The notes under the pieces are model-generated. The model searched no databases. It saw nothing but the letters and a program-made list of their open reading frames with translations, and was not told the origin of the DNA. A stretch of DNA of 64,000 nucleotides from an uncultured Planctomycetia bacterium (GTDB taxonomy: Bacteria; Planctomycetota; MHYJ01; WSZJ01; CAZWCX01), in NCBI GenBank assembly GCA_964632945.1, contig CAZWCX010000007.1, positions 30,088 to 94,087 of the forward strand, given 5' to 3'. Below, piece after piece: positions 2,383 to 62,823 of this stretch. A program made the translations under genes and the position numbers. Positions within the stretch are counted from its first letter, which is position 1. The number at the start of each line of letters is the position of its first letter.

Positions 2383-2733
2383 GGACCTCCCGGTCGCCTT
2401 GTCCGATCCGCTTCTCCCTGATGTCAGCCTAGACCTGCCGCTCCCGATGCGTCAAGGCAATCCTCCTCGGGGATGATACGGGGGGCGCATACGCGCAGGT
2501 TTCGCTCCGGGTTCGAGATTTCGCTTCCGACGTGCCGATGACCCGAGGGGGATCGTCGGGACCGCTGCGGAGCGACCGCGGGGACGACGACGGAGCGACC
2601 TGAAGCGGCGGCCGCGCCGCCCGTTCGGTCCCGCGGCTCCTCCCGGTGCCGGAATTGGCTCGACATTCCCCCGCACGGACTTAGAATCCACCCATTCGGA
2701 ATTCGAGGTTCGTCAATCAGGGAGGATCTCCGC

Positions 2734-14505: not shown

Positions 14506-14584
14506 GGGTGGGATTATCCCCTCCGCGGCGAGGCGGGGTCAAGCGAGTTCCCGGCCCGGCGCCGGCCGGCCCATTCGTTCCGCG

Positions 14585-32337: not shown

Positions 32338-32647
32338 CTTCCTATGACCCGATACCGATCGGATGGGCCGGAACCGCTGTCGAATCCTACTGTCGGTTCC
32401 GAAGGAGTGTCAAGAGGAAATGTGGCTTCAAACTTTGCCGCCGGGCATTGAAGGATTTGTTCAATCCGGCCTGTAAGCCGGTTGCGAGCGAATCCTGAAA
32501 TGATTGCTACATATAGTGTTACGTCATTGCTGGGAATTCCGTGGGCACGGAATGGCGCTTGCTTATCCCCCTCTTCGGTGCGGCCAACCCCGGCTCGCAG
32601 GGGGTGCACCGGAGGCCCGCACGAAAGGCATCGGGAGGCACGCAACC

Positions 32648-34168
32648 ATGAGTCATCTGCACGGCAAGCCTGGGGATCGAATCGCGGAGTACGTTCTGCT
32701 CGACAAGATCGGCGTCGGTCCGATGGGTGAGGTGTGGAAGGCCCGGTTGGCGGAGAAGCCGTTCACGGTGGTGGCGCTGAAAATTGCCGCGGACCCTGAG
32801 CGCTTCCGCGACGCGCGGTCGATGGGGACCCAGCCGTTGGGGTTGGACCATCCCGCGGTCGTGCGGACGCTGGGATTGAACATCGCGCATGACCCGCCCT
32901 ACGTGGTCATGGAGTACGTCGAAGGCCGGAGCCTGCGTCAGGTGCTGGAGAAAGGCCGGCGACTGACCCCCGGGGATGCGCTCGAAACGGCGATCCAGGT
33001 TCTCGAGGTTCTCGGCTGCGCGCACGAGCAGGGAGTGATCCACGGCAACCTCAAGCCGGAGAATCTGCTCATCGAGACGCCGCCCGGGGCGGCGGCCGGG
33101 TCGTTCCGGGTACGCGTGACCGACTTCGGACCTGGCATGGTGGCGCGAACGGGGGCGCTCCCCGCGACCGGGGACCTTTCGTACCTCTCGCCCGAGAACC
33201 GCCAGGGCGAGATGTTCGGCGTGCGATCCGACCTCTACGCGGTCGGCGCGATGCTGTTTGAGATGCTGACGGGACGGACGCCGGCGGGGGAGGAATCCCC
33301 GAGCGAGGCCGCGGAAGGCGTACCGGCGCTGCTGGATGGCGTCGTGCGCAAGGCTCTGCATGCCCGCCCCGAGGGGCGTTATGCGACCGCCCGGCAGATG
33401 CGGGAGGACGTGCTGGCGTGTCTCCGGGCGGTGCGCTCGGAGGAAGCCCGAGCGGACAAGCACGCGGCGGGAGCCTCCGGCTCCGGCAAGGCCGAAGACT
33501 CCGGTCCCCGGTTCCGCGAGCAGGTCCGTCGGGTCGTCGACGACGTCAAGGGCCGTCAGTCGGTGGACGTGGGACGCGCGTTCAATGACGCGATCGCGAT
33601 GTTGTCGCGCAGCGCCGGGACACTCCTGCTGGCGGGATTGATCTCCGGGTTGCTGTCGTTGGCTACCGCCTTCATCCTGGCGGGTCCGCTCACCGCAGGT
33701 CTCTACGCCATGGTCCTTCGCGTGCTGCGCGGCGGGACCGTCGAGGTCGGCGATGTGTTCGGCTCGTTCGACCGGTTCTGGAGCAAGATGTTCGCGTTCT
33801 ACGTGATCCTGTTCGGCATCCTTGTCGGCTTCGTGCACCTCGTCCTGCCCGGCATCGTGATTGCCGGTCTGACCATGTATGTGTTCCCGATCCTGGCCGA
33901 GCGGAAGGTCGGCTTCGGCCAGGCGTTTTCCGAGAGTGCCGGCCTGGTGTGGAAGCACGGTTTGCTGGTGCACTCGGCGCTCGTCCTCGTGGTCATCCTG
34001 ATGGACGTCTCGGCCGGGTGGGTCTTTCCGGGCGGGTTGCTGGCGAGTTGGTTGCTGAGCCCCTTCCTGTACGGGCTGATCGGGTCGGCCTACCTGCAGG
34101 TGCAGGAGCGGGAGAGCGCGGCGCCGGAGCCGAACGTTCCGGTTGCGGCCGTGCCCGCGACCGCGTAG
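32648..34168 (+). CDS. Predicted pseudokinase (Hanks-type kinase fold with a degenerate catalytic loop) fused to a C-terminal polytopic membrane domain.
   Basis: GVGPMGEVWKA, VVALKIA and DFG are present. The catalytic loop reads HGNLKPENLL instead of HRDLKPEN. The C-terminal ~200 aa form five to six hydrophobic helices. The ATG was verified at 32648. Confidence 0.75.
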   Translation: MSHLHGKPGDRIAEYVLLDKIGVGPMGEVWKARLAEKPFTVVALKIAADPERFRDARSMGTQPLGLDHPAVVRTLGLNIAHDPPYVVMEYVEGRSLRQVLEKGRRLTPGDALETAIQVLEVLGCAHEQGVIHGNLKPENLLIETPPGAAAGSFRVRVTDFGPGMVARTGALPATGDLSYLSPENRQGEMFGVRSDLYAVGAMLFEMLTGRTPAGEESPSEAAEGVPALLDGVVRKALHARPEGRYATARQMREDVLACLRAVRSEEARADKHAAGASGSGKAEDSGPRFREQVRRVVDDVKGRQSVDVGRAFNDAIAMLSRSAGTLLLAGLISGLLSLATAFILAGPLTAGLYAMVLRVLRGGTVEVGDVFGSFDRFWSKMFAFYVILFGILVGFVHLVLPGIVIAGLTMYVFPILAERKVGFGQAFSESAGLVWKHGLLVHSALVLVVILMDVSAGWVFPGGLLASWLLSPFLYGLIGSAYLQVQERESAAPEPNVPVAAVPATA

Positions 34169-34407
34169 GATCGGCATGGACCTGTGTCTGCGGATCGTCG
34201 GATGCGCGCATCCGACGATCCGTCGTCTTTCCGGGGCGGGACGATACGGGACGGGTGGGGGGCGAGCCGGGGGCGGGCGGGGGTGCCGGCGGTCCTCGGC
34301 CTGCAGGGAGGGTCGGCGGCCCGGCTGCATTTCGACCATGACGGCGTGGTCCGCTTCGGCGCGCCGGTGTGCTTGGCGTGGGCCCCCTGCCGCTCTATAC
34401 TCTGGGC

Positions 34408-35661
34408 ATGTTTACCGCTGCCCCTCCCCTCGAGCGACGCCTCCTTCTCGTCTGCCTGGTGGTCGCGGCCGTCGCCCGTCTCGGATTCGCCTTCGCGGGG
34501 CGGGAGTACGTGGAGCGGACGTCGCGGGAAACCCTTCGCGACACCGTCGGCTACAACGACCTCGCGCGTCATGCTCTCGAGCACGGCGCGTTCGCCAAGC
34601 TCCCGCCGCAGACGTTCCCCCGGCCGCCGTTGTATCCGCTATTTCTCGCCGGCGTTCGCGCCACGCTGGGGGACGGCTACGCCGCCACCCGGATCGCGCA
34701 GACCCTCCTGCAGTTGCTGACGCTGCTGCTCCTCTATCGCCTGGCGCGGGCCTGGTTCGGCCCCACGGTCGGCCTGCTCGCTTCGTACCTGTTCGCGCTC
34801 AATCCGTTCTTCGTCTTCTATACCGCCTTCGAGTTGTCCGAGACGCTGGCCGTGTTCCTGGTCGTTCTCATCGCCTCCCTGGTCCAGCACGGGTCGGCGA
34901 CGCTGCACCCCGCCTGGGCCGCGGCGCTGGGCTTCGCGCTGGCGGCCGCAACCTTGTGCCGTCCCCCGCTGGGTCAGGCCGGTCTGCTGCTGCTCGCCGG
35001 GACCGGCCTGGCGCGTCGCGCGGATCGCGCCTTCTGGGTCGCCGCGGGATCGGCGTGCCTTTCCTTCCTGGTCGCGGTGGCTCCGTGGATCTGCTTCCAC
35101 GCGCAGGCCTACGGCCGTCCCGTGATCGTCTACATGGGACTGGGACGCAGCCTGTACGAGGCGAACAACCCGACGAGCGTGACCGGCACGGGGATCATCG
35201 GCGTCGACTTTCAGCTCGATCCGGCGATCGAGGCGCTGCCGTTCGAGGAGCGCGACCGCATCTACCTGGATCGCGCCCTCGCGCACATCCGGGAGGAGCC
35301 GGGATTGTACGTCGGTCGCTGCCTGTGGCGTTTCTATCGGCTGTGGCAGCCGGTTCCCTACGCGCCGGAATTCGCGGATTCCGGCAAGATTCTCGTAGTG
35401 TTGCTGGGCGAAGGGATCTTCCTGCCGTTCTTCGTCGCCGGTCTGTGGCTGACCCGGCAGCGGTGGCGGGACCTGCTCTGGCCCTACGCGCTCGGGATCA
35501 CGCTCACCGCCGCCCACACGCTGATCGTGAGCGGCATGCGCTACCGCGTTCCGGTGATGCCGTTCGCGCTCATCCTGGCGGCGTTCGCCCTGACGACGCT
35601 GATCGCCCGGTGGAACCGGCTGCGCGCGGCGGATTCCGACCGGGGCGGGTCGGCGCGTTGA
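34408..35661 (+). CDS. GT39-like membrane glycosyltransferase (ArnT/PMT_2 family).
   Basis: A polytopic N-terminal half with a PMT_2-like arrangement (YNDLARHALEHGAF...PPLYPLFLAG). The ATG was verified at 34408. Confidence 0.65.
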   Translation: MFTAAPPLERRLLLVCLVVAAVARLGFAFAGREYVERTSRETLRDTVGYNDLARHALEHGAFAKLPPQTFPRPPLYPLFLAGVRATLGDGYAATRIAQTLLQLLTLLLLYRLARAWFGPTVGLLASYLFALNPFFVFYTAFELSETLAVFLVVLIASLVQHGSATLHPAWAAALGFALAAATLCRPPLGQAGLLLLAGTGLARRADRAFWVAAGSACLSFLVAVAPWICFHAQAYGRPVIVYMGLGRSLYEANNPTSVTGTGIIGVDFQLDPAIEALPFEERDRIYLDRALAHIREEPGLYVGRCLWRFYRLWQPVPYAPEFADSGKILVVLLGEGIFLPFFVAGLWLTRQRWRDLLWPYALGITLTAAHTLIVSGMRYRVPVMPFALILAAFALTTLIARWNRLRAADSDRGGSAR

Positions 35662-35806
35662 CGGGGGGCGGACCGGACCGATAGAGTAAAGGGAACGGAC
35701 GGCCTGGCCCGGGCCGAGGAGCGTGGACCGGAGCGGGCGGGCCACCCCTGGACCCGGCGGAGGCGGTGCGCAGGGTGTTCGCACCCTCGGCGCGCGCGTT
35801 CCTCTC

Positions 35807-38800
35807 ATGACGGAACCTCGCAATCCGGATACGTCGGCCGGATCCGCGCCGACCCCGCGTCCGGATGCCACCCTGCCCCTTCCGATGGCGGGTGAGGCGT
35901 CCGGGGGCGCGGGGGCGACGGAGCCTCGCGGGCCGCATCTCGCTCCGGAACGCGCCGACTCGGTCGGCTTCAACCTCGAGGACGAATTCCGCGGGCTCCC
36001 GCGTCACTTCGGTCGCTTCCAGATCCTCGAGGAACTCGGTCGGGGCGGGATGGGGGTCGTTTACCTGGCCTATCATCCCGAACTCCGCGTCCACTTCGCG
36101 GTCAAGGTGCTGCTCGCCGGAGACCAGCCGCCCGCCGAACTGCTGTCCCGATTCGAACGCGAGGCGCGCGCGCTCGCCCGCATCCGGCATCCCGGCTTCG
36201 TCGCCGTCCACGACCTCGGCGTTGCGGACGGAAGGGCGTTCATCGCCATGGAGTATGTCGAGGGGGTGTCGCTGGAAAGGCTGCTCGAGGATCCGGTCGG
36301 CCACGGCGTCGCCGAGGCCGGACCGGGATCGGCGCCTGCGCCGGTCGGCGGTTCCCCCGCGGGTCCGATCCGGGTTCGCTCCCGCCGCGGCGCGCGCGGC
36401 ATCGCTCCGCGCGAGGCGGCGGGAATGATTGCGGAGGTCGCAGAGTCCCTGCAGGCGGCGCATGAAGCCGGCATTCTTCATCGCGACCTGAAGCCCGCCA
36501 ACATCCTTCGTGATCGCGCCGGTCGCCTGAAGATCATGGACTTCGGGATCGCGAAGATGACGGGCGCCGGGACGCTGCAGACCCAGGCCGGAGCGGTCAT
36601 GGGAACCCCTTCGTACATGAGTCCCGAGCAGGCGTCCGGCGATGTGGATCGCATGGATGAGCGCAGCGACGTGTATCAGCTCGGAGCGGTGCTCTACGAG
36701 ATGTTGACCGGCACCGTGCCGCACGACGGGCCGAGCCCGATGGCCATCGCCATGTCGGTCCTGAAGAGCGAGCCGGCGCGTGTGCGGGTTCGGTCACCGT
36801 GGGTGCCGGTCGGCTTGGCGGCCATCGTCGAGAAGGCAATGGAGCGCGAATCCCGTCAGCGGTACAGCACCGCGCAGTCGCTGGCGCTCGACCTCCGCCG
36901 ATGGCTGGCCGGAGAGCCGACCGAAGCGCGTCCGCCGTCCTGGTGGAAGCGGCCGGTGCGCTGGCTGCATCGCCATCGGGGGCCCGCCGCGCTCGGCGGT
37001 GTCGCGCTGGTCTGTCTGATCGCGGCCGTCCTTGCCGTGGTGCGGTGGCGCGGCGCCGAGGCGCGCAGATGGAGCGACCTGGCGGACAGGGCCGCTCTCT
37101 ATCGCAAGGCGGCCATCGACCTGCGTCGCGAGGGCCTTTCGCTCGAGCGCAAGGGCCGCGACTACCTGGCGCTGCTCGGCGCCGCGGTCACCGAGGCGGA
37201 AGCGGCGGATCCGTCGCGGCCGGAGCCCCGCTGGCACCTCGGGCGCCTGCAGCGCGCGCTGATGGACTTCCGCGCGGCGCGCGCCGCGCAGGAGGAGGCC
37301 CTGCGTCGCGATCCGGAGTTCGCACCCGCGCGGTACGAACACGCGGTCCTGCTCGCCGCGGAGTACCGGGCGCGGATCGATCGCCTGCGGGATGCCTGGT
37401 GGGCGTCGGCAGGCGCGCAGCGGCCGTCCGGCCCGGATCCGGACCGCGAAGGGGGAAGCGCGATCGCTGCGGGGCCGCCTCCCTCGGCCGACCTGGCCGC
37501 GGCGGATCCGGTCGCCGGCGCACTTCGCCGGGCCTTGCGGGAGGACCTCAAGCGGCTCGAGGCGGCAACCGGCCGGTCCGGGGACGACGAAGGGGTGATC
37601 ACTTCCGCCATGCGGCGCTGTGCGCGCGGGCTCTACCTGTCCGGGGAGGCGTCCGGACCGGAGGGATGGGCGGCGTCGGCCGAAGAGCTCGAAGCCGCCC
37701 TGGCGGCGGACCCGGGACTGGAGGAGGCCGTCGAGGCCCTGGCCGCGCTGCGGCGCGACGAAGGGAAGCCCGCCGCCGCCGTGGCGGTGTACACGCGCGG
37801 CATCGAAGCCGATCGCGGCTACGCTCCCTTCCGCTCCGGCCGTGCCGGGATGTGGACCGAGGAAGGGATGCAACGGTTCGGTCGCGGCGAGGACCCGGGC
37901 GCTGCCTTCACCGCTGCGCTGGAGGACTTCGCCCAGGCACTCGAAACCGCGCCCGACGTGCCGGCGACCTGGGTCGGACGGGGCATGACGCGGCTCAACC
38001 GCGGCGTGTGGATCGTCCTGGCGGGCGGGGATCCGACGTCCGAATACGAGGCGGCGGTCGCGGACTTCGGTCAAGCTCTCGCCCGGGCGCCGGACCTCGT
38101 CGATGCGCTCAGCTGGCGCGGGAGTACGCGGTCCAATCTCGCTCGCCATCGCGAGGAGCGGGGGGTCGATCCCGGGGATGCCGTGCGGCTGGCCCGGGAG
38201 GACTTCGATCGCGCGCTGGAACTCGATCCTCGCGCATCCGGGGCGCTGCGCGGCCGGGCCAATCTGCTCAACAACATCGGCCTGGCGAAGCGGCGTCGGG
38301 GCGAAGATCCCACTCCGGACTACCAGGCGGCGATCGCGGACTACGGGCGCGCGCTGGCGCTGGATCCGCGCTCCGAGGAGGCCTGGGTTCGGCGGGGGTT
38401 GGCGCGCGTCAACCTGGGCGTGTACGTGGTCGGGCGCGGCGGGGATCCCCTGGCGTGGTACGACGAGGCGATCGCCGACTTCGGACAGGCGATCGAGCGC
38501 TTCCCGCGCGAGGCGGAGGGCTACCTGCGACGCGGGACGGCACGCTGCAACCGGGCGATCTACCGCGCCTCGCGGGGCGCGGACGCCCGGCCCGACTATG
38601 CCGCGGCCCTGTCGGATCTCGATGCCGCGGTGGAGCGCAATCCGCGCTGGGACGAGGCGTGGCGGACGCGCGGCATCCTTCGGGCCCGGCATGCGGTCGA
38701 CGCGCGACAGCAGGGGGAGGACCCGACCCCGCTGTACGAGGCGGCCATGGCCGACTTTGGTGAGGCCATCCGCGTGAATCCGGCGCAGGAGGAGAACTGG

Positions 38801-39250
38801 ACGGAACGCGGCCAGACGCGCCTGAACTGGGCCATCGGCAAGTTGGCCGCCTTCCAGTTGCCGGCAGGGCTGCTCGAGGCGGCCGAGGCCGATTTCACGG
38901 CGGCGCTCGAGCGCAATCCCGCGCGGGACATGGCCTGGCAGGGACGCGGGCACGCGCGGCGCCTCGCGGCGATGCTCGGCGCCATGCGCGGGAAAGATCC
39001 GGCGGCCGGACTCGCGGCGGCGCTCGACGATCTGGACCGGGCGGTGCGGGCAAACCCGGGAAACGCGGTCTCATTCGCCCGACGGGGGTCGTTGCACGTG
39101 GTGCTGGGCAACGACGAGAAGGCGCTTTCCGACTTCGCCTCCGCCGCGGCCCTCGATCCGGCGAGCACCGCGTCGTACGCCATGGAGATCCAGATGGCTC
39201 GCGCGCGCCTGACGCAGCGGAAGCCGGAAGAGGACCTCGGGGAAGATTGA
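35807..39250 (+). CDS. Ser/Thr protein kinase with a single transmembrane segment and an extensive C-terminal TPR array.
   Basis: GRGGMGVVY, AVKVL, HRDLKPANIL, DFGIAK and SPEQ are present. One hydrophobic helix (ALGGVALVCLIAAVLAVV) separates the kinase from the TPR array. The ATG was verified at 35807. Confidence 0.9.
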   Translation: MTEPRNPDTSAGSAPTPRPDATLPLPMAGEASGGAGATEPRGPHLAPERADSVGFNLEDEFRGLPRHFGRFQILEELGRGGMGVVYLAYHPELRVHFAVKVLLAGDQPPAELLSRFEREARALARIRHPGFVAVHDLGVADGRAFIAMEYVEGVSLERLLEDPVGHGVAEAGPGSAPAPVGGSPAGPIRVRSRRGARGIAPREAAGMIAEVAESLQAAHEAGILHRDLKPANILRDRAGRLKIMDFGIAKMTGAGTLQTQAGAVMGTPSYMSPEQASGDVDRMDERSDVYQLGAVLYEMLTGTVPHDGPSPMAIAMSVLKSEPARVRVRSPWVPVGLAAIVEKAMERESRQRYSTAQSLALDLRRWLAGEPTEARPPSWWKRPVRWLHRHRGPAALGGVALVCLIAAVLAVVRWRGAEARRWSDLADRAALYRKAAIDLRREGLSLERKGRDYLALLGAAVTEAEAADPSRPEPRWHLGRLQRALMDFRAARAAQEEALRRDPEFAPARYEHAVLLAAEYRARIDRLRDAWWASAGAQRPSGPDPDREGGSAIAAGPPPSADLAAADPVAGALRRALREDLKRLEAATGRSGDDEGVITSAMRRCARGLYLSGEASGPEGWAASAEELEAALAADPGLEEAVEALAALRRDEGKPAAAVAVYTRGIEADRGYAPFRSGRAGMWTEEGMQRFGRGEDPGAAFTAALEDFAQALETAPDVPATWVGRGMTRLNRGVWIVLAGGDPTSEYEAAVADFGQALARAPDLVDALSWRGSTRSNLARHREERGVDPGDAVRLAREDFDRALELDPRASGALRGRANLLNNIGLAKRRRGEDPTPDYQAAIADYGRALALDPRSEEAWVRRGLARVNLGVYVVGRGGDPLAWYDEAIADFGQAIERFPREAEGYLRRGTARCNRAIYRASRGADARPDYAAALSDLDAAVERNPRWDEAWRTRGILRARHAVDARQQGEDPTPLYEAAMADFGEAIRVNPAQEENWTERGQTRLNWAIGKLAAFQLPAGLLEAAEADFTAALERNPARDMAWQGRGHARRLAAMLGAMRGKDPAAGLAAALDDLDRAVRANPGNAVSFARRGSLHVVLGNDEKALSDFASAAALDPASTASYAMEIQMARARLTQRKPEEDLGED

Positions 39251-39353
39251 TCGCCGGCCGTGTTCCGCGGCCCGCGCGGGCCGATCTTCCGGTCGCGGGC
39301 GGCGGGGTGGGGCGTCCCGTCCCGCGGACGGCGTGGGCGTGACCGTTGCCGGG

Positions 39354-40694
39354 TCAACGGTCCTCGGCCGCGGTCTGCAACAGCGTTCGGATGTGGCGGG
39401 CCCGAATGGCGTAGCCCAGACCGGTTTCGCCGGCGATCTTGCTGACCGCGATGGCGATCAGTTCGCCGCGACGATTCACCACGGGGGCGCCGCTGATTCC
39501 CCCCTGGATCGTCCCGCCCAGGTGCAGGTACTGGTCCACCCGCCGCAGCGGCGCCGGCGCCACGCTGAGGGCGAGGTCCATTCCCACGAACGCGGTCGGT
39601 CGCGGAAACCCCAGGGTCACCACCGGCTCCGCACCCGGAGCCGGAACCGCCGCGTCCGGCTCCGCAGGCAGGAAGATCGGCGTGGAGTGGATGCCGGGAA
39701 CCCGAAGCAGCGCAATGTCGGCATCCGAGCGGCTCGCATGATAGGGGGAGCTCTTCTCGAGCGGCACGTCCGGGCAGGATGCGACCAACTCCACGACCGA
39801 GGTCTCAACTCCCCAGGTCGGCGAATCCGGATCGAACGTGCCTCCCGGTTCGTGGATGAAGTAGCGCACCTCGAGCAATTCGGGAAAGGGCGCCTTCTCG
39901 GCCCCGTCGTCCGGAAACTTCCAGGGTTGCACCACATGTTTGGCGGTGACGATTCCCCCCGTCGCGTCGACGTAGAACCCGGTGCCGAAGGCGTGACCGG
40001 TCTTGGTGCTGCCGGACGCGGGATCCTTGAACCGGTAGCGGGTCTGAACCAGCACGACGCTGCGCGCATACCGCCGCTGCACCTCGAGCAACGCGGAGTC
40101 CTTGAATCCTTCCGCGCGCGCGAGCGCAAACTCCCGATAGAGCGCGAACACGCCGAACCCGACTCCGCCCATCACCAGGAGCAGGGCCGTGAGGGCGGCG
40201 CCGAACCAGAACTTCAGGCGGCGGTGCGAGTGCTGAAGATCCCGGTAGAGGTTGCGGACGAAAACGGCGGTGCGTTCGATGCCTCGGGCAGGCTTGCTCG
40301 TGGACAGCGCGCGCGTGATCAACGCGCGCATCGTCTTGGGCGGTCCGTCCGCGGCGGAATCGTCCGGGGTCGGGTCCACCGGGACCGAGAAACACAGCTC
40401 GGCCGGTCGATCCCCGAACGAGATCCGGTCCCCGTTGCGTATCGGCGCGCCTTCCCCGGCCGCGAGCGCCTTGCCGTTGAGCCGCGTCGGCACGGAGCGG
40501 CCGACGGGATAGAGCGTGATCCGGTCGGCGCTTTCGACACAGATCTCGGCCTGGTTCGGTTCCGCGCGAAAACCTGCGTCTTCCGTCAAGACCAGGTCGT
40601 TTCCGGTGCCCGCGCCGAGCCGGATGACGTCGGCCTCGAATTCACCGAGGGTCCGACGGGAGCCTCCCTGGACGCTGCTGAGGACGATCCGCAT
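39354..40694 (-). CDS. FHA domain, transmembrane helix and trypsin-like (S1) serine protease fused in one protein.
   Basis: N-terminal FHA (VIRLGAGTGNDLVLTED...ITLYPVGRSVPTRLNGK...NGDRISFG). Transmembrane helix FGAALTALLLVMGGVGFGVF. Protease catalytic triad context: TAKHVV (His), DIALLRV (Asp) and GGISGAPVV (Ser). Confidence 0.85.
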   Translation of the reverse strand: MRIVLSSVQGGSRRTLGEFEADVIRLGAGTGNDLVLTEDAGFRAEPNQAEICVESADRITLYPVGRSVPTRLNGKALAAGEGAPIRNGDRISFGDRPAELCFSVPVDPTPDDSAADGPPKTMRALITRALSTSKPARGIERTAVFVRNLYRDLQHSHRRLKFWFGAALTALLLVMGGVGFGVFALYREFALARAEGFKDSALLEVQRRYARSVVLVQTRYRFKDPASGSTKTGHAFGTGFYVDATGGIVTAKHVVQPWKFPDDGAEKAPFPELLEVRYFIHEPGGTFDPDSPTWGVETSVVELVASCPDVPLEKSSPYHASRSDADIALLRVPGIHSTPIFLPAEPDAAVPAPGAEPVVTLGFPRPTAFVGMDLALSVAPAPLRRVDQYLHLGGTIQGGISGAPVVNRRGELIAIAVSKIAGETGLGYAIRARHIRTLLQTAAEDR

Positions 40695-40913
40695 TCCCTT
40701 TCCGTAGTCTCTGCCCGCCTCTCATGTCAAGCCTTCGACCCTCGCGTCGCCCGCTTGGGCCATTCGCCTTGCCGGGCACGGTTCCCTCCCGAGCCGGACT
40801 CCGTGGTTGCATCGCCGGGTGGGCATGGCGCCCTCGCTTGCTTGCGCGCCCGTGGGTCCCTCGGCATACTGGGAGATGCCGTTCCTCATCAGGCCGGGAG
40901 GTCGCCGCCCCTC

Positions 40914-42104
40914 ATGCCCTCGGAATCCGAAATCGCCTTCTGCCGCCGCCTGGTCGAGATTTGCTCGTCCTCGGGCATCTCGTTCACCCCGGCGGATGCC
41001 GACCGGATCCTCGCGCGCGTCGACGAGATCGAAAAAACGACCGGTCGACCGGTGTGCGTGGCTGAGATGCTGTTCAAGGACGAGGCCACGGATGTGCCCC
41101 CCTCGGCCATCGCCCGGGTACAGAACGAGCACAAACGCAAGATCGTCCTTTGCCCCACGTGCGGCGCGAAGAACAACGTCTTCGACCGGTCCCGCGAGAA
41201 GGCGGTGAAGTGCCCGGCGTGCCGCGAGATGTTCTATTTCTCGGACGGGCTCTTCCCGGTTGCCGATACCGTCGGCCTGCCCCGGATCGAGGGGTTTGCG
41301 ATCGGTGACCTGATCATGGAAGGCGGGCAGGGGGCCGTCTACCGCGGTACGCGAGCGGCCGATGGCGCGCCCGTGGCCATCAAGATCGTGCAGTGGGGGA
41401 CGATGCACGATCCCTCGGATCGCGACCGGTTCAAACGCGAGGCGGAACTGGCCGCGAGTCTCGATCATCCTGCCATTGTCCGAGTGCTCCACTTCCAGGC
41501 CGCACCGATGCGCGGTATCCTGGTCATGGAGTGGGCCGGGACAAGCGTACAGGATCGGGTCGAAACGGATGGGCCCGATCCGCCGCCGCGCGCGCTGGCC
41601 CTCGGGCGGGCGCTGTTCTCCGGCTTGGCCTACGCGCACGCCCGGGAGATCGTCCACCGCGACATCAAGCCCGCCAACATCATGGTGCGCGAGGACGGTG
41701 CGGTGAAAATCGTCGACCTCGGACTGGCCAAGACCATGGCGTGCACGGGCGTCAGCGGCATTACGCTTTCCGGGGTCGGAATGGGCACACCCGCGTACAT
41801 GCCTCCCGAGCAACTCACGCGCTTTCGCATTCTGGATGCGCGAGCGGATCTGTACGGAGCGGGGGCCACGCTCTACTTCCTGCTCACGGGTCATGCGCCG
41901 TACGAGGGCAAGGGCCCCGCAGAGGTGCAGCGCCGGCTCGCAGAGGGACCGCCGAAGTCGATTCGGTCGTGGCAACCCGCGTTGCCTCCGGCCATCGTTG
42001 CGCTGATCGAGCGCCTGATGGCCCGCGAGCCGGAGCGCCGTCCGGCCGACGCGGGTTCGGTCATCGTCGAAATCGACCGTATCCTGGCGGATTCGGCGCG
42101 CTGA
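40914..42104 (+). CDS. Ser/Thr protein kinase with an N-terminal zinc-ribbon domain. It is divergent from the FHA-protease gene.
   Basis: CPTCGAK...CPACREMF, then GGQGAVYRG, VAIKIV, HRDIKPANIMV, DLGLAK and PPEQ. The ATG is in-frame inside the long track ORF 39333..42104 and was verified at 40914-40916. Confidence 0.85.
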   Translation: MPSESEIAFCRRLVEICSSSGISFTPADADRILARVDEIEKTTGRPVCVAEMLFKDEATDVPPSAIARVQNEHKRKIVLCPTCGAKNNVFDRSREKAVKCPACREMFYFSDGLFPVADTVGLPRIEGFAIGDLIMEGGQGAVYRGTRAADGAPVAIKIVQWGTMHDPSDRDRFKREAELAASLDHPAIVRVLHFQAAPMRGILVMEWAGTSVQDRVETDGPDPPPRALALGRALFSGLAYAHAREIVHRDIKPANIMVREDGAVKIVDLGLAKTMACTGVSGITLSGVGMGTPAYMPPEQLTRFRILDARADLYGAGATLYFLLTGHAPYEGKGPAEVQRRLAEGPPKSIRSWQPALPPAIVALIERLMAREPERRPADAGSVIVEIDRILADSAR

Positions 42105-42607
42105 GTCGCGCGGGTGATTTGTCCGGCGCTGCGCGCGGCAGGCGACGGTCACCGGGATTCGACGGTCCGTGGAACGCGGGGGCGAACCGGTCCCGCCGGA
42201 CGGGGCCGGCCACCCGGTCCGCGTCCCCGGACCTCCGGATGGCGGTGGTTGTCATGGATCGAAATGACGCGCGCGAACCGGCGCGGTCTGCGCGACGGGT
42301 CGTCGCCTACCTCGCCTGGCTCGCGGAGAGCGGCCCCGGACGCGTCGAGCGCTCCCGCTCGAACAATCATGGAACCTGGCACGACGTCCAAACGGCCGCG
42401 TTCGCGTTCGTCTGCGGGCAGCCGCGGAAGGCCCGGGAGGATTGAAGCCTTACACCCCGCGGCGGGGACGAACGCGACGGCGGACGATCGAGCGCGCCTC
42501 ACCGCATCGCCGTCGCCTCACCAAGGCCTCTTGCGGCCACTCCACCCGAAGCGATAGCATGTCCGCATCGGCGCGCACGCATCCCCCCTCGAGCGAAAAG
42601 GGCTGCC

Positions 42608-43492
42608 ATGCCATCGCGAAGACTCCTCATCGCCGGAGGCGTCCTGTTGGCCGCGATCTTCGTCGCCCAGACCGCGGTCCTCCTGCGGGCGCGTCCCGAG
42701 GCGGACCCCGCGGAGACGGCGGAGATCGCCTCCCTCCGCGCCGATGTCCGGGCGTTGACCCAGGCGCACGCCCAGGCGCAGGCGCGGCTCGAGCGAATCG
42801 AGGAAGCGACGGCCCGCAGCGCGTCCCTGCTGGCCGAAGTCAGAGCCTGGACGGAAGCGCAGGAATCGTATCTCCGTTCGGCCGCCATCGCCGCCTCCTC
42901 CACGCCCACCCCCGTCGGCTCGACGGGGTCGGATCGCTCCACCGACGAGGCCGGCGACCCGAGCGATCGCGGGACCGGCAAGGCGGGGATCTCCGAAGTC
43001 CTCGACCGGCTGGCGCGCATGGAGAAGAAACTCGGCCGGCGCAAGGGGGGCGAGGAGTGGAAGCCGACGGTGGCCGAGCTCGACGAGGCGCTCGATCTGG
43101 AGCCGCATCAGGAGTCCGGGCTGGTGCAGACCGCCAATCGCGCCAAGGACGAATTGATGGCGCTGGCGCGAGTCCCGCGCGCGGACGGCGGCACTTTCCT
43201 CGACGACTTCGCGGACGCGATCAACGAGTCCAAGAGCAATCCCGCGGCGGCCCAGGCGGCGTACGGGGCGCTGATCGCCCGCCTCATGGTCGAGAAAGTC
43301 CCCGGACGGAACGGGACGTACTTCGCCGAGATTGTCGCCTTGTCGGCGCAGGCGCATCGCGAGTTCCAGTCCACCCTGACTCCGGAGCAATATCAGGAAC
43401 TCCAGGAGCGGGACGTCGACGTCTTCGGCATCAAGACCGGATATGATCCCATCGGCGATTACGCGGCCGCGCGGGTCCCGCGGCGCAAGTGA
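42608..43492 (+). CDS. Membrane-anchored hypothetical protein.
   Basis: An N-terminal transmembrane helix (LLIAGGVLLAAIFVAQTAVLL), followed by helical, charged sequence. Confidence 0.6.
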   Translation: MPSRRLLIAGGVLLAAIFVAQTAVLLRARPEADPAETAEIASLRADVRALTQAHAQAQARLERIEEATARSASLLAEVRAWTEAQESYLRSAAIAASSTPTPVGSTGSDRSTDEAGDPSDRGTGKAGISEVLDRLARMEKKLGRRKGGEEWKPTVAELDEALDLEPHQESGLVQTANRAKDELMALARVPRADGGTFLDDFADAINESKSNPAAAQAAYGALIARLMVEKVPGRNGTYFAEIVALSAQAHREFQSTLTPEQYQELQERDVDVFGIKTGYDPIGDYAAARVPRRK

Positions 43493-43590: not shown

Positions 43591-44290
43591 ATGTTTCCCG
43601 TCCTCCTCGCCCTGCCCATGACCGCTCCGGCGCAGTCCCCTCCCACGCGCGACCCGTCCGAGCTGGCCGCCCGATCGAGTGCCTCCGGGCCGCCGATGTC
43701 GCCTGGCGGAAAATCCCCTGGAAAAGTTGCCTCTTCGACGGCTTGCGGGAGTCCAGGGCGTCGGGAAAGCCGATTCTTCTTTGGGTCTTCATCGACCGTC
43801 CGGTCGAGGACGAGCGTTGCCGAGTCTTCGCCGGCGCTGCCCGTGAGGCGGTCTTCAGCCGGTCCGACGTCCTCGAACGGGTGCGGTCCGGGTTCGTCCC
43901 CGTGGCCCTGGAGGCCGCCCCGGTCAACCGGCCGGCGGCCGGAGAGGAGGGAGCGCTCTACGCGGAGATCGGGCGGTCCAAGCCGGCTCCGCAGGGGACC
44001 TGCGCGATCAACTCCGCCGGTATTGCGCTCGAGTGGCAGGGGACCCCGGAGGCGGAGGCCGCGGACCGCGACGAGACGGTGGCCTTCGTCGAGCCCCGGG
44101 ACATTCGGGCCCGGGTCGACCGGGTTCACGCCGGGATCCGACGCATGCAAGCGGGAGGTCTTGATCCGTCCCCGGTGATGAGGATCCGGCGGGAATTCGA
44201 GCCGCGCATGCAAGCCGGTCGGTTGGAGGAGGGCCTGTCAGGTCCTGGAACGCGCGCTGGATGCCCTGGAGCGGGAGTTGGGGAAGGATT
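43591..44290 (+). pseudogene. Thioredoxin-like (DUF255/Thioredoxin_7-type) gene with apparent frameshifts. The signal peptide and the domain lie in different frames.
   Basis: Signal-peptide-like MFPVLLALPMTAPAQ sits in one frame from 43591. The domain WRKIPWKSCLFDGLRESRASGKPILLWVFIDRPVEDERCRVF...FVPVALE sits in the frame of track ORF 43443..44639. A plausible C-terminal helix (QVLERALDALERELGKD) ending at 44290 is in a third frame. Confidence 0.35.
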
Positions 44291-44359
44291 GACGGGGGCG
44301 GCCCCGATCTCCATGCTGGGCCCGCGGGTTGTCAAGTTCCGTCTCGCCGGGGAGGGCCC

Positions 44360-44806
44360 ATGGACCCGATGGATCCGCAGGTATGGCTGCGTTTCGCGTG
44401 CTACGGTCTGCTGGGCTGGGGCGCAGAAATCCTCTGGACGGGAGTCAAGCCGCTGCGGCGGCGTCCGATCGACTGGCGTCTCCCCGGGGACACCTCGCTC
44501 TGGATGTTCCCGATCTACGGGCTCTCGGCGTTCCTGTTCGAGCCGATCCACGAACTCCTGCGCGTCTGCGCCTGGCCGGCGCGCGCGGCCGCCTACGTGG
44601 CCGGCATCTGGATCATCGAGTATCTCACGTCCTGGCTGATCGAGCGCGCCGTCGGGTCCCCGCCGTGGGACTACTCGTACGCCCGCTGGAATCTGCACGG
44701 ACGAATCCGCTGGGACTACGCTCCGCTCTGGGTGCTCTTCGGGCTGCTGCTGGAACGAGTTCATGACGCCCTCCTGCGGGCCGGTCCGACCCTGCTCGGG
44801 ACCTGA
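44360..44806 (+). CDS. Small integral membrane protein.
   Basis: Four hydrophobic helices (WLRFACYGLLGWGAEILW, MFPIYGLSAFLF, AAYVAGIWIIEYL, PLWVLFGLLL). The ATG was verified at 44360. Confidence 0.6.
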   Translation: MDPMDPQVWLRFACYGLLGWGAEILWTGVKPLRRRPIDWRLPGDTSLWMFPIYGLSAFLFEPIHELLRVCAWPARAAAYVAGIWIIEYLTSWLIERAVGSPPWDYSYARWNLHGRIRWDYAPLWVLFGLLLERVHDALLRAGPTLLGT

Positions 44807-44909
44807 GCCGGGGCGGCGCGTCCGCAGGAGAGCGCGATCCCGGCCCTTGAGCCGTCCGCTCGGGCGGGATACAATCGGCCGTCCCGCGAACGATGGAGGA
44901 AGACTCCGC

Positions 44910-45752
44910 ATGGCCGACCAGGACCGATTCGAAGGCGCCCGTCGCTACGTGCTCGACGACGAGCTGGCGAAAATCGTGAACGTCAGCATCGCCCTGGAGA
45001 TGCCCCTGCTGATCAAGGGCGAACCGGGCACCGGAAAGACCATGCTCGCCCACGCAATCGCCGAGAGCCTGGGGATGAAGCTCGTCATCCTCAACGTCAA
45101 GTCGAGCATGAAGCTGGTCGATGCGCTCTATCAGTACGATACGCTGACGCGGCTCAACGACTCGCGCTTCGGCGACTCCAAGCGAAACGTCGCCGACATC
45201 GCCGAGTACATCCGCATGGGAAAAATCGGCCAGGCCTTCACGGCGGATGAGCGCGTGGTGTTGCTGATCGACGAGATCGACAAGGCCGACACCGATTTCC
45301 AGGACGACATGCTCGACGTTCTGGACCAGATGTCGTTCGACATCCTGGAGATCGACCGGACGGTCCGGGCACGGCACCGTCCCGTCATCCTGATCACCAG
45401 CAACGCCAAGAAGGACCTGTCGGACCCGTTCCTCGGCCGCTGCAACTTCCATCACATCGCGTTCCCGGACGCCGAGATGATGAGACGGATCGTGCAGGCG
45501 CACTATCCCGACATCGAGCGCGAACTGCAGGAGGGCGCGGTGCGGGCCTTCTACGCTCTGCGCGAGCTCCCCGACCTCGAGAAGCGGCCGGCGACGCGCG
45601 AGCTCCTCAACTGGATCCGCGCGCTCCGCGCCGATCCGGAGTTCAAGGCGAAGGGCCTCGGGCGCGGCGGCGCGCCGTTCCTGGGCGTCCTGTTCAAGAA
45701 GAGCCGGGATCTCGACATTGCCCTCACCCATGCCCCGCGCCTGAAACTCTGA
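44910..45752 (+). CDS. MoxR-like AAA+ ATPase of the CbbQ/NirQ/NorQ/CoxD subfamily.
   Basis: Walker A motif GEPGTGKT, Walker B motif VLLIDEIDKA and sensor region ILITSNAK. The ATG was verified at 44910. Confidence 0.9.
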   Translation: MADQDRFEGARRYVLDDELAKIVNVSIALEMPLLIKGEPGTGKTMLAHAIAESLGMKLVILNVKSSMKLVDALYQYDTLTRLNDSRFGDSKRNVADIAEYIRMGKIGQAFTADERVVLLIDEIDKADTDFQDDMLDVLDQMSFDILEIDRTVRARHRPVILITSNAKKDLSDPFLGRCNFHHIAFPDAEMMRRIVQAHYPDIERELQEGAVRAFYALRELPDLEKRPATRELLNWIRALRADPEFKAKGLGRGGAPFLGVLFKKSRDLDIALTHAPRLKL

Positions 45753-45766
45753 CGTCGATCCGGGGA

Positions 45767-46960
45767 TTGCGCATGTTCGCCGCGTTCTTCCACCAGATGA
45801 AAGCCGAAGGCGTGCCGGTGACGCCGACGTCTTTTCTCCGCCTTCATCGGGCGCTTCAGCTCGGCCTCGTCGGCTCGCTCCACGACTTCTATGCCGCCGC
45901 TCGGACCATCCTGGTCAAGAGCGAGCGGCACTTCGACGTCTATGACCGGCTCTTCGCCCACCACTTCCACGGGGCGGAGTTCGTCCATCCCGCGGACGAG
46001 GAGCTGGCGGATGCCGTCAAGGCGCTCCTGTCCGAATGGCTGGCCGATCCTGCGGCTCTCGCCGGCCTGCTCGATCTGCCGAGGGAGAAGATCGAGAGCC
46101 TGACCCCCGACGAACTGATTCAGTACTTTCTCGACCGCTTGAAGGAGCAGAAAGGGCGGCACCAGGGCGGGTCCAAGTGGATCGGGACCGGTGGAACGTC
46201 GCCGGTCGGGCACTCGGGCCGGCATCCCGGCGGGATGCGCGTGGGCGGTGTGGGCGGCGGGCGCTCGGCGGTCAAGGTGGCGATGGAACGCCGATATCGC
46301 GATTACTCCCAGTCCGGTCCGCTCACCCAGGCGCAGATCGGGGAGGCCCTGAAGCGACTGCGCCGGCTCGTCCCGGCCGGACCCCGCGACTTCCTGGACA
46401 TCGACGGCACCATCGATCGGACCACGCGCAACGGCGGCGAAATCGACCTCGTCTTCGATCGCAGCCTCCGCGACCGGCTCGAGGTGGTGCTCGCCATCGA
46501 CAACGGCGGCTGGTCGATGGACCCGTACGTCGGAATGGTGCAGGTGCTCTTCGACTACGCGCGCGATCAGTTCAAGCGGCTCCGCACCTTCTTCTTCCAC
46601 AACACGATCTACGGGCGGGTGTGGGAAGACCCGGAGCGCTGGCGCAAGCCGATGGCCACCGAGGACTTCGCCCGCTTCGACCGCGAGACGCGCCTGATCC
46701 TCGTCGGGGACGCGAGCATGGCGGGGTGGGAACTCAACGGACACCACGGCTCGATCCGCGCCGAGGAGCGCTCGGGCATCCCGAGCAGCCGACGCCTGAA
46801 GTTCCTCGCCGAGACGTTTCCTCACGCGGTCTGGCTCAATCCGGTCCCGGCGGACCATTGGTACTTCGCCGGCACGATCGCGCAAATCGGCGCGATCTTC
46901 CCGATGTTCGAACTGTCGCTCGACGGCCTGGAAGAGGCGGTGAAGCGGCTGCAAGGTTGA
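45767..46960 (+). CDS. CoxE-like VWA-domain protein, the canonical partner of CoxD/MoxR ATPases.
   Basis: It starts 14 nt after the MoxR gene. The C-terminal VWA-like region (DLVFDRSLRD...LAIDNGGWSMDP) and overall layout match the VWA_CoxE family. Confidence 0.8.
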   Translation: MRMFAAFFHQMKAEGVPVTPTSFLRLHRALQLGLVGSLHDFYAAARTILVKSERHFDVYDRLFAHHFHGAEFVHPADEELADAVKALLSEWLADPAALAGLLDLPREKIESLTPDELIQYFLDRLKEQKGRHQGGSKWIGTGGTSPVGHSGRHPGGMRVGGVGGGRSAVKVAMERRYRDYSQSGPLTQAQIGEALKRLRRLVPAGPRDFLDIDGTIDRTTRNGGEIDLVFDRSLRDRLEVVLAIDNGGWSMDPYVGMVQVLFDYARDQFKRLRTFFFHNTIYGRVWEDPERWRKPMATEDFARFDRETRLILVGDASMAGWELNGHHGSIRAEERSGIPSSRRLKFLAETFPHAVWLNPVPADHWYFAGTIAQIGAIFPMFELSLDGLEEAVKRLQG

Positions 46961-55354: not shown

Positions 55355-55497
55355 GGGGGCCTCCAGCAGGTTCGGAAGGAGCCGGGGGGCGGACCGGGGC
55401 GCGGGGACGATCCCGCGCCGGCCGCGAGCGGGCTCCGGAAGTACAGGGACACGAGCGGGCGGCCGTCCGGGCGCGCCCGCGGGGGGCGGAATTCGGA

Positions 55498-60120: not shown

Positions 60121-60130
60121 GGCGCGATCC

Positions 60131-62440: not shown

Positions 62441-62823
62441 GCCCCCTCCGGATCAGTCGACATGGAAACGACGGTCGGCCTCTCCCGGCCGGCCCGCTTG
62501 GAGAGACGGTCGCACCCCGGGGGGGAGCGACGAAGCAGGAATGACGGATTGGACGCCAGGAATACCGTCCCAGTTTCCAACTATTCCGCATTCCGGTCAA
62601 GAGAGCAATGCAGGGCCCGAGGTCTTGGGCGATCGGTGCGCCGGCGGGGGCGGTCCCGGGTGGATCGTCCGGATCCCGCAACCCCTATGGAGATAAAGGG
62701 ATGCACAGGCCGGGGGGCCTCGGCCTCCGGCCGCTCCGGCACCGGCTTCGCGGTCGGGCCGAGCGCGCCGCTCGCCGACGGGCACGCGTGGCCGCACCCG
62801 ATTCGGTCGGATCCTCGACGCCC

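Follow-up and report, generated by a model that had tools for sequence, protein, structure and literature searches.

The stretch of DNA that was analyzed here as a whole (64 kb, hereafter the window) encodes a 446-aa membrane protease on the minus strand (positions 39354..40694) and, transcribed divergently from it, a soluble Hanks-type serine/threonine kinase of 396 aa on the plus strand (40914..42104). The open reading frame of the protease showed a coding-type profile, with GC contents of 0.69, 0.51, and 0.84 at the first, second, and third codon positions, and its product was identical to a gene product called in an NCBI record. The start of the kinase was likewise the same as in the NCBI gene call, and a terminator-like hairpin (42097..42112) was found at the end of the kinase gene. 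The intergenic region between the two genes (40695..40913) had been proposed in a preliminary description as a shared control region of about 220 nt. A gap of 219 nt is indeed present. Shared regulatory elements were looked for in it and not found: the search for a sigma-70-like promoter, whose consensus may not hold in this phylum, was negative, and the repeat search gave only trivial short repeats, a result that speaks neither for nor against shared regulation. On its other side, the protease gene converges, at a distance of 103 nt, with the gene for a receptor-type Ser/Thr kinase (35723..39250, plus strand), which has Pkinase and TPR matches, a large TPR ectodomain, and a transmembrane helix at residues 422-440. 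The same local cluster includes another membrane Ser/Thr kinase (32504..34168, plus strand; Pkinase E value 1.7e-28, transmembrane helix near residue 435). Because the window contains four Hanks kinases, two of them flanking the protease gene, adjacency alone is weak evidence for a functional relationship and could be due to chance.

The domain order of the protease was investigated by Pfam and structure prediction (AlphaFold2, mean pLDDT 86 for the whole protein). As the preliminary description had stated, an FHA domain and a Trypsin_2 domain are joined by a single hydrophobic helix. The protease domain comprises residues 205-443 (39366..40082, minus strand) and is predicted to be periplasmic; the match to Trypsin_2 (PF13365) covers residues 237-415 with an E value of 1.8e-12. 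The motifs KHVV, DIALL, and GGISGAP contain H253, D326, and S401, whose codons were verified at 39936..39938, 39717..39719, and 39492..39494 of the minus strand, and, when the sequence is aligned with DegQ and HtrA1, these three residues fall on the catalytic His, Asp, and Ser. In an alignment of 140 family sequences, D326 was invariant, while H253 and S401 were conserved in at least 90%. The S1 triad described earlier from short motifs is thus intact and conserved in the family. The best Foldseek matches of the domain were the protease domains of DegS, DegP, and HtrA1 (E values of about 3e-11).

The window protease therefore has in common with DegS, DegP, DegQ, and HtrA1 a chymotrypsin-fold domain with a His-Asp-Ser triad, and it is predicted to share with DegS an inner-membrane helix N-terminal to a protease that faces the periplasm. 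In the known envelope proteases that are regulated, DegS and DegP among them, control is exerted in the periplasm through PDZ domains. Members of the HtrA/S1C group carry one or two of these domains at the C-terminus; in contrast, no PDZ match was found in the window protein by Pfam, its protease domain extends to residue 443 of 446, and a cytoplasmic FHA-fold head is the likely regulatory module instead. Moreover, a family-specific motif, HVVxPW(K)F, follows the catalytic His, unlike in the HtrA and DegS proteases; the window protein reads AKHVVQPWKF at residues 251-260, and P257 and W258 were conserved in at least 90% of the 140 relatives. The NCBIfam models for HtrA, DegP, DegQ, and DegS gave only 15-36 bits against cut-offs of 408-756 (best equivalog score 36.3 vs. 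470; DegS 15.3 vs. 408). In fact, neither the protease nor the kinase reached the cut-off of any NCBIfam family. The S1 proteases of the MarP (Rv3671c) family are, like the window protein, anchored in the membrane, periplasmic, and free of PDZ domains; the match to the model of this family was weak (23.9 bits vs. a cut-off of 250). MarP is anchored by four membrane helices and is not known to carry a cytoplasmic signalling domain.

The N-terminal head (residues 1-105; 40380..40694, minus strand) is predicted to be cytoplasmic and has kept the FHA fold. The Pfam match (PF00498, residues 25-94) was marginal (22.7 bits, cut-off 20.7), whereas canonical FHA members of the same family scored 47-67 bits. 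The model of residues 1-110 was nevertheless confident (pLDDT 94.9), and its matches in the PDB were FHA domains only, with TM-scores of 0.67-0.78 (KIF13A, kanadaptin, Ki67, GarA, FhaA, Rad53, and EmbR at the top). A sequence search with the FHA domain alone matched no solved FHA domain. The GR, SxxH, and NG motifs are crucial for phosphothreonine binding and for stabilizing the site (PMC3162421), and family alignments show that the window protein keeps only one of these six residues. The GR position reads G27-A28, with Ala28 in place of Arg; the SxxH position reads E45-P46-N47-Q48, with Glu45 for Ser and Gln48 for His; and the beta6-beta7 loop reads R66-S67-V68-P69, with Val68-Pro69 for Asn-Gly. 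In the relatives, by contrast, S45, H48, S66, N68, and G69 (query numbering) were conserved in at least 90%, and most family members have the canonical residues. Since a single canonical residue remains, canonical phosphothreonine binding by this head is unlikely on sequence grounds. The phosphothreonine-binding FHA domain of the preliminary description thus survives as a fold without the canonical binding residues, and the phosphorylation-dependent recruitment deduced from it becomes unlikely for this protein. Two arginines, R43 and R66, sit in the pocket loops, and therefore a non-canonical phosphate site may exist there.

Between the head and the membrane lies a juxtamembrane linker (residues 106-161; 40212..40379, minus strand), also predicted to be cytoplasmic, which is marked by conserved Thr motifs and by a low model pLDDT across residues 109-139. 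The two motifs are K-T121-M-R-A-L-I (T121 codon 40332..40334) and R-T142-A-V-F-V-R (T142 codon 40269..40271), both codons being verified on the minus strand. The pattern T-[MVIL]-x-[LIMVA]-[LIMV] occurred in 14 of 43 FHA-type linkers, compared with 1.0 expected by shuffling, and in none of 58 non-FHA members. This FHA-type-specific motif is retained in the window protein, and its T121 is a candidate phospho-site. The linker is followed by the transmembrane helix (residues 162-186; 40137..40211, minus strand), which falls inside a long helix of the model (139-197) and, with a Kyte-Doolittle peak of 2.2, is the sole hydrophobic helix of the protein, as had been proposed. More positive charge lies on its N-terminal flank, RNLYRDLQHSHRRLK, than on its C-terminal flank, in keeping with the positive-inside rule, and 87 of 122 family members likewise had more Lys and Arg on the N-terminal side. 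Some relatives have just an N-terminal anchor before the protease. Hydropathy and charge bias together predict a cytoplasmic head and a periplasmic protease domain.

The kinase matched the Pkinase profile with an E value of 7.7e-41 (140.7 bits vs. a cut-off of 31.7). The motifs GGQGAV, VAIK (154-157), HRDIKPAN (from 248), DLG (from 268), and PPE are present, so that the profile and the catalytic Lys, HRD Asp, and DxG Asp identify it as a Hanks kinase. No hydrophobic helix was found by the Kyte-Doolittle scan (maximum 1.24), and Pfam recognized no sensor domain. Its N-terminus consists of a helical region and a putative zinc ribbon, C80-P-T-C83 ... C100-P-A-C103 (41151..41222, plus strand). Pfam zinc-ribbon models matched it weakly, below their cut-offs (20-21 bits vs. 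23-29). The four cysteines and the flanking KNNV were invariant in the full-length orthologs P0154, P0155, and P0156. The divergent Hanks kinase and the two N-terminal CxxC pairs of the earlier description are thus present.

A word-based homolog search with the protease gave only 4 matches, and it was an exhaustive search of representative proteins that revealed the family. Related proteins formed 559 clusters, most of them from Planctomycetota and Acidobacteriota, with further members in Bacteroidales. We defined the family by one transmembrane helix followed by a Trypsin_2 domain with (T/A)xKHVVxPWKF after the catalytic His, features which the window protein possesses. Within this large uncharacterized family, found mainly in these two phyla, the window protein is a divergent member; the same protease and one membrane helix are combined in the family with interchangeable cytoplasmic heads (FHA, FHA-FHA, TerB, or none). 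FHA or FHA-FHA heads were present in about a third of the best members (50 of 151), and others carried TerB or the membrane anchor only; among the 70 best members, 21 had FHA and 25 had TerB. A signalling-to-proteolysis coupling of this kind had previously been called rarely described in bacteria; the architecture itself is not rare in sequences, considering the 559 clusters and the FHA heads on roughly one in three of the best 150. As early as 2008, Tripathi and Sowdhamini catalogued an FHA-FHA-trypsin protein (NP_811686.1) from Bacteroides thetaiotaomicron (PMC2605481). It has the same domain combination as the window protein and was listed but never studied; it differs in having two canonical FHA domains instead of one degenerate domain. 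The Bacteroidales FHA-FHA-TM-protease proteins P0138 and P0273 belong to the same family. No functional study of any FHA-TM-protease was found in our literature searches.

Whether the proximity of kinase and protease is conserved was considered at the loci of this family, which were collected by a genome scan based on a 9-sequence alignment. Looked for in other genomes, the FHA-S1 architecture proved widespread, and its synteny with kinases held in some loci and not in others. At one locus (L057), a C-terminal fragment of the protease (45% identical to the query) lies 12 bp upstream of a kinase ortholog (48% identical to the window kinase) on the same strand. The genes are in tandem there and divergent in the window, and this different orientation argues for selection on proximity. 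A kinase was found beside 7 of 24 FHA-type loci and beside none of 29 non-FHA loci (Fisher's test, p = 0.002), where the unit is the locus and not an independent event, and 5 of the 7 positives represent one acidobacterial operon type. This operon has the order DZR-FHA (Zn-ribbon-FHA), FHA-TM-protease, kinase, kinase, Band_7-FHA (SPFH-FHA). On the other hand, a nearby kinase is absent at most planctomycete FHA-type loci, and the pairing is missing at L055, with a 41%-identical kinase ortholog, and at L059 and L060, with two 34%-identical kinase relatives. Another ortholog, 55% identical, has 95 nt of upstream sequence on its contig (L056), too little to show a pairing. The locus of P0113 (L058), a fragment 54% identical to the C-terminus of the protease, was set aside as uninformative on kinase adjacency, being truncated next to a transposase. 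All-against-all clustering of neighbours returned just the kinase cluster, the acidobacterial Zn-ribbon-FHA cluster, and sub-lineage synteny; a neighbour census by Pfam was dropped, as antisense shadow ORFs in high-GC DNA made gene picking unreliable. Taken together, the comparison supports a link between the protease family and Ser/Thr kinases that appears real but patchy.

Phosphorylation, the direction of signalling, and the substrates of the pair are what we infer from these features. In our preferred reading, to which we assign a probability of about 0.55 as a whole, the window protein would be a bitopic inner-membrane serine protease whose DegS/HtrA-related C-terminal domain faces the periplasm and which is controlled by its pseudo-FHA head and linker, with the adjacent zinc-ribbon kinase as its partner. 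The cytoplasmic head and the juxtamembrane linker would determine how the periplasmic protease oligomerizes or which allosteric state it adopts, and inside-out control would replace the PDZ-based control of the DegS type. In the lineage of the window, the soluble kinase might either phosphorylate T121 and T142 of the linker or dock on the pseudo-FHA domain without phosphate. Among characterized systems, the one whose logic comes nearest to the apparent working of the family is the PknF-Rv1747 pair of Mycobacterium tuberculosis, in which an FHA-bearing ABC transporter is regulated by the kinase of its operon via threonines of its linker (PMC3138270, PMC8339232). In both pairs a membrane protein with an N-terminal cytoplasmic FHA domain is encoded next to a Hanks kinase, and the unstructured-linker threonines that act as phospho-acceptors in Rv1747 have a counterpart in the conserved threonines of the window linker, for which such a role is a candidate one. 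However, the output of Rv1747 is a transporter and not a predicted periplasmic protease; in the window pair, known from its sequence, the FHA pocket is degenerate, and the kinase is soluble and bears a zinc ribbon. Another precedent for the head is MxiG, whose N-terminal cytoplasmic FHA fold precedes a single transmembrane helix; in this fold the conserved His and Asn are missing, and phosphothreonine is not bound (PMC3162421). The order of FHA fold, one transmembrane helix, and periplasmic domain is shared by the type III secretion ring proteins MxiG, YscD, and PrgH, and the Pfam model Yop-YscD_cpl matched 19 of 70 family members; nevertheless, the periplasmic part of the ring proteins is a ring-building scaffold and that of the window protein an enzyme domain, and no secretion-system context was found in the 64-kb window.

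The adjacency could also be coincidental, with a housekeeping envelope quality-control protease, a pseudo-FHA domain that serves as a structural or oligomerization module, and kinases that have other targets. We consider this possible although clearly less probable, for the evidence is divided: the density of kinases around the gene, the scarcity of kinase neighbours among planctomycete family members, the three loci with a kinase and no protease, the degenerate pocket, and the lack of a shared regulatory element in the 219-nt gap all fit it, whereas the recurrence of the pair in another orientation at L057, the restriction of neighbouring kinases to FHA-type members, and the Thr motif kept in the window linker do not. 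A model along the lines of the preliminary description, in which a working FHA domain brings the protease to a phosphorylated substrate or to the kinase in its autophosphorylated form and makes proteolysis phosphorylation-dependent, is plausible for most family members, whose FHA residues are canonical. For the window protein it is unlikely: the fold is there, a kinase gene lies next door, and L057 shows the pair again, yet residues 28, 45, 48, 68, and 69 have replaced the motifs, and the domain alone resembles no solved FHA domain in sequence.

Signals might also run from outside to inside, the protein acting as part of a split receptor kinase in which the protease domain is sensor and anchor and the pseudo-FHA domain tethers and activates the soluble kinase. 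The kinase, having neither a membrane helix nor a recognizable sensor domain, would be anchored in the membrane by the protease and gain a periplasmic domain from it; the binding of misfolded envelope proteins by DegS is an example of such sensing, and phospho-independent FHA contacts have precedent (PMC3162421). This scheme is inferential throughout, the triad, being intact and conserved, speaks for proteolysis itself as the output, and kinase orthologs exist without the protease, so we regard it as very improbable. Hardly credible, and rejected here, is an anti-phage defence pair of a PD-T4-6-like kinase and an effector protease. The PADLOC models PD-T4-6 and mad6 did match the kinase strongly, and RT-Protease models matched the protease weakly, but the matches to the kinase cover just its kinase domain, and all are generic for kinase and trypsin domains: the unrelated TPR receptor kinase scored higher on the same models, from which it follows that they recognize a kinase domain in general. 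Moreover, no NCBIfam defence family reached its cut-off, the neighbours are ordinary genes of the chromosome, no signature of a mobile element or a defence island was seen in the window, and a periplasm-facing protease would be an atypical abortive-infection effector.

The reading of a kinase-partnered, head-controlled protease can be extended, speculatively and with considerable doubt, to the family as a whole. Cytoplasmic Ser/Thr kinases might phosphorylate the conserved juxtamembrane Thr, and FHA heads might read the phosphothreonine in trans and cluster the protein; clustering would then switch on the PDZ-less HtrA-like periplasmic protease as an inside-out device. In the lineage of the window, the FHA pocket would have decayed and a dedicated soluble zinc-ribbon kinase would dock without phosphate, rewiring the device into a transmembrane unit of two genes, a kinase and a protease, that might equally run outside-in as a split receptor kinase.

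To our knowledge, the control of bacterial envelope events by Hanks-type kinases is poorly understood beyond a few model organisms. If the adjacency is incidental, the window holds one more uncharacterized membrane protease in a kinase-rich genome. If the family, which bears a cytoplasmic FHA or TerB head and in several lineages lies inside kinase/FHA gene clusters, is kinase-coupled, it would lead directly from phosphorylation to proteolysis outside the cytoplasm, and the window protein, with a natural "pocket-dead" FHA domain that is still paired with a kinase, would offer a contrast showing what needs phosphothreonine reading.

We found that the reverse-strand gene at 39354..40694 encodes a 446-aa protein whose codon positions 1/2/3 have GC contents of 0.69/0.51/0.84, as in real genes of this ~70% GC window, and that an identical protein had already been annotated on a 112,531-bp contig at NCBI. 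A frame of 923 codons running antisense through the whole protease gene into the kinase (39333-42104, forward strand) was rejected as a high-GC shadow ORF; the NCBI gene call starts the kinase at 40914. Shadow ORFs of this kind also occurred in related loci, where they confounded automatic gene picking. In Pfam, Trypsin_2 was matched at residues 237-415 (E = 1.8e-12), and the protein has one strongly hydrophobic segment (residues 162-186), the flank on its N-terminal side, RNLYRDLQHSHRRLK, being more basic than that on its C-terminal side. In alignment, H253 (KHVV), D326 (DIALL), and S401 (GISGAP) fell on the catalytic positions of DegQ, HtrA1, and HhoA; among relatives (one set of 70 and one of 140) D326 was invariant, and H253 and S401 were invariant or at least 90% conserved. 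The AlphaFold2 model of the full-length protein (mean pLDDT 86) had the protease domains of DegS, DegP, and HtrA1 as its closest PDB matches (E ~3e-11). No PDZ domain was found by Pfam, and the NCBIfam models HtrA, DegS, and MarP all scored far under cut-off. Thus, the order of FHA domain, single helix, and protease with an intact triad, as given in the preliminary description, was confirmed by the reading frame, Pfam, and hydropathy.

Considering that this architecture had been called rarely described in bacteria, its distribution was investigated in 1.84 billion representative proteins. At E below 1e-3 the search returned 559 clusters (107 at E <1e-10), none of them above about 39% identity to the query. 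All of the best 70 relatives contained Trypsin_2, while the N-terminal head was interchangeable, being TerB in 25 and FHA in 21 of them; in local profile searches FHA, at times in tandem, was present in 50 of 151 relatives. A single hydrophobic helix lay between FHA and protease in 49 of these 50, the exception being P0140, in which no helix exceeded the threshold. About 25 of the best 70 (P0005, P0007, P0011, and others) carry TerB, the tellurite-resistance domain, in place of FHA, with one transmembrane helix and the same protease; the helix of this group follows TerB at about residues 125-150. In a third group an N-terminal anchor alone precedes the protease. More Lys and Arg were found N-terminal of the helix in 87 of 122 family members, as would fit a head in the cytoplasm and a protease in the periplasm.

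The HVVxPW(K)F motif following the catalytic His is family-specific. A scan of species-representative genomes with KHV[VI][QE]PWK gave 53 loci, nearly all of them in Planctomycetota MAGs and others in Acidobacteriota (Thermoanaerobaculia and Holophagales), and the FHA-FHA versions came from Bacteroidales. The closest protease fragment found, P0113, is 54% identical to the query C-terminus, with GLSGAP for the query GISGAP; its frame is truncated (locus L058, 136-618, forward strand) and adjoins a Transposase_29 gene (955-3309, reverse strand), so that it may be a disrupted copy. Rarity could not be upheld: an FHA-FHA-trypsin protein of Bacteroides thetaiotaomicron (NP_811686.1) was already included in a 2008 survey (PMC2605481). 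Family proteins bear only generic names in their source databases, and our literature search did not find a functional study of the FHA-TM-protease family. The locus is a divergent member of a widespread architecture that has been catalogued yet not studied, and the related known kinds are FHA/kinase-regulated membrane proteins and membrane-anchored HtrA-like proteases.

The head was thought to bind phosphothreonine; its FHA fold was confirmed, but such binding is unlikely. The Pfam FHA match (residues 25-94) scored 22.7 bits against a cut-off of 20.7, while relatives score 47-67 bits. The model of residues 1-110 had a pLDDT of 94.9, and its PDB matches were FHA domains only, including GarA, FhaA, Rad53, EmbR, and Ki67 (TM-scores 0.67-0.78); the FHA fold is thus beyond doubt. 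Pocket residues were read from query alignments to 49 FHA-type relatives and from a separate focused set of 16 FHA domains. The canonical GR is replaced by G27-A28, SxxH by E45-P46-N47-Q48, and D-x-G-S-T-N-G-T by P63-V-G-R66-S67-V68-P69-T70, while the structural NG past the next strand (N73-G74) and the structural GD (G88-D89) are kept. At the aligned motif positions, conservation among the relatives is 90% or more. The GR, SxxH, and NG motifs have been reported to be crucial to phosphothreonine binding and site stabilisation (PMC3162421), and only one of their six residues is retained in the query. Moreover, a sequence search with the FHA domain alone matched no solved FHA domain. Based on these residues, this absence of sequence matches, and the low Pfam score, canonical phosphothreonine reading by this protein is unlikely. 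Since R43 and R66 sit in the pocket loops, the pocket may still form a non-canonical site.

The stretch joining FHA to the helix contained the motif (V/F)G-x-x-T-[MVIL]-x-[LAM]-[ILMV] in 14 of 43 FHA-type relatives (P0006, P0009, P0133, L025, and others), where shuffling expects 1.0, and in none of 58 non-FHA relatives. The query form is K-T121-M-R-A-L-I, and a second conserved block, GGT-x-x-F-x-RE-VV-RQ, has its query counterpart around T142; the region spans residues 121-142 (40269-40334, reverse strand). This FHA-type-specific Thr with its hydrophobic residues is a plausible candidate for a phospho-acceptor or an FHA ligand. Similarly, in Rv1747, an FHA-bearing transporter, the linker residues T152 and T210 are phosphorylated by the operon kinase PknF (PMC3138270, PMC8339232), so that both cases have linker threonines on an FHA-bearing membrane protein beside a kinase.

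The divergent gene, 219 nt away (about 220 nt had been estimated), encodes a 396-aa Hanks kinase (40914..42104, forward strand; Pkinase E = 7.7e-41) in which hydropathy revealed no membrane helix. Its three full-length orthologs (55%, 48%, and 41% identity) have the N-terminal helical region in common, and the CPxC...CPxC ribbon is invariant among them, in agreement with the putative zinc ribbon first noticed. The gene just downstream (42608-43492, forward strand) has a product of 294 aa that is hydrophobic in a segment near its N-terminus and gave no match in Pfam, NCBIfam, or PADLOC. Further along are a CmpB-like membrane protein (44261-44806), just upstream of a MoxR-like AAA ATPase (44763-45752, forward strand), and, immediately after the ATPase, a VWA/CoxE-like protein (45767-46960, forward strand; a weak match under the Pfam cut-off); the latter two (44763-46960) form a classic MoxR-VWA pair. 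Three consecutive very large reverse-strand frames at 51491-62452 (about 1535, 1573, and 773 codons stop-to-stop) have coding-type GC3 and zero Pfam matches.

The main rival explanation is that protease and kinase are adjacent by chance in a kinase-rich genome. The window contains four Hanks-type kinases in 64 kb (11329-14538, reverse; 32504-34168, 35723-39250, and 40914-42104, forward), and one of these, a TPR receptor kinase, converges with the protease gene at a distance of 103 nt. Large TPR ectodomains occur on two of the four, and three of them cluster around the protease gene together with a PMT_2 glycosyltransferase (34342-35661). Synteny was likewise patchy: the 41% kinase ortholog is surrounded by unrelated genes, for two metagenomic kinase relatives (34%) the 8 kb upstream contain no protease, and kinases are missing from most FHA-type loci of planctomycetes. 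However, on L057, the contig of the 48% ortholog, a same-strand gene stops 12 bp short of the kinase start and encodes a protease C-terminal end with GDSGGP that is 45% identical to the query C-terminus (tblastn E = 2e-10), so the pair recurs in another orientation. Downstream of that kinase, a gene (1494-2015, forward strand) that has no counterpart downstream of the window kinase encodes an N-terminal CPxC...CPxC zinc ribbon of its own and has a weak DUF7560 match.

Also against chance, 7 of 24 FHA-type loci had a kinase no more than about 2.3 kb from the protease, versus 0 of 29 loci of the non-FHA type (Fisher p = 0.002), the fetched loci not being phylogenetically independent. The roughly 29 non-FHA loci, TerB-type or anchor-only, had no kinase in their flanks. 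Five of the seven positives were one acidobacterial operon type, ordered as double-zinc-ribbon-FHA, FHA-TM-Trypsin_2 protease, short membrane kinase, second membrane Hanks kinase, and SPFH/Band_7-FHA. In the Thermoanaerobaculia and Holophagales that share this operon (L046, 840-9650; L050, 6915-13205; L052, 6801-13187; L054, 223-9618; L047; L053), three FHA proteins and two kinases surround one periplasmic protease. The other two were planctomycete: at L009 the kinase is convergent, and at L037 a kinase-ankyrin giant lies in tandem. An outside-in system, in which the pair would act as a split receptor kinase, is less likely, and so is anti-phage defence, for which the PADLOC matches were generic.

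The best-supported reading is that of an HtrA-like protease without a PDZ domain that is anchored in the membrane, faces the periplasm, and is controlled from the cytoplasm. Head and linker would set its activity or assembly, and the adjacent zinc-ribbon kinase would be the probable input. Given the degenerate pocket, coupling in this protein would not run through the classical FHA-phosphothreonine contact but through phosphorylation of the linker, through docking on the pseudo-FHA that needs no phosphate, as with MxiG-type FHA folds, or through both. The proposal that phosphorylation recruits or regulates the extracytoplasmic protease is partly supported; for this particular protein it is weakened by the dead pocket and the patchy synteny. 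Nevertheless, at the level of the family, the tie between kinase/FHA signalling and a periplasmic protease merits experiment.
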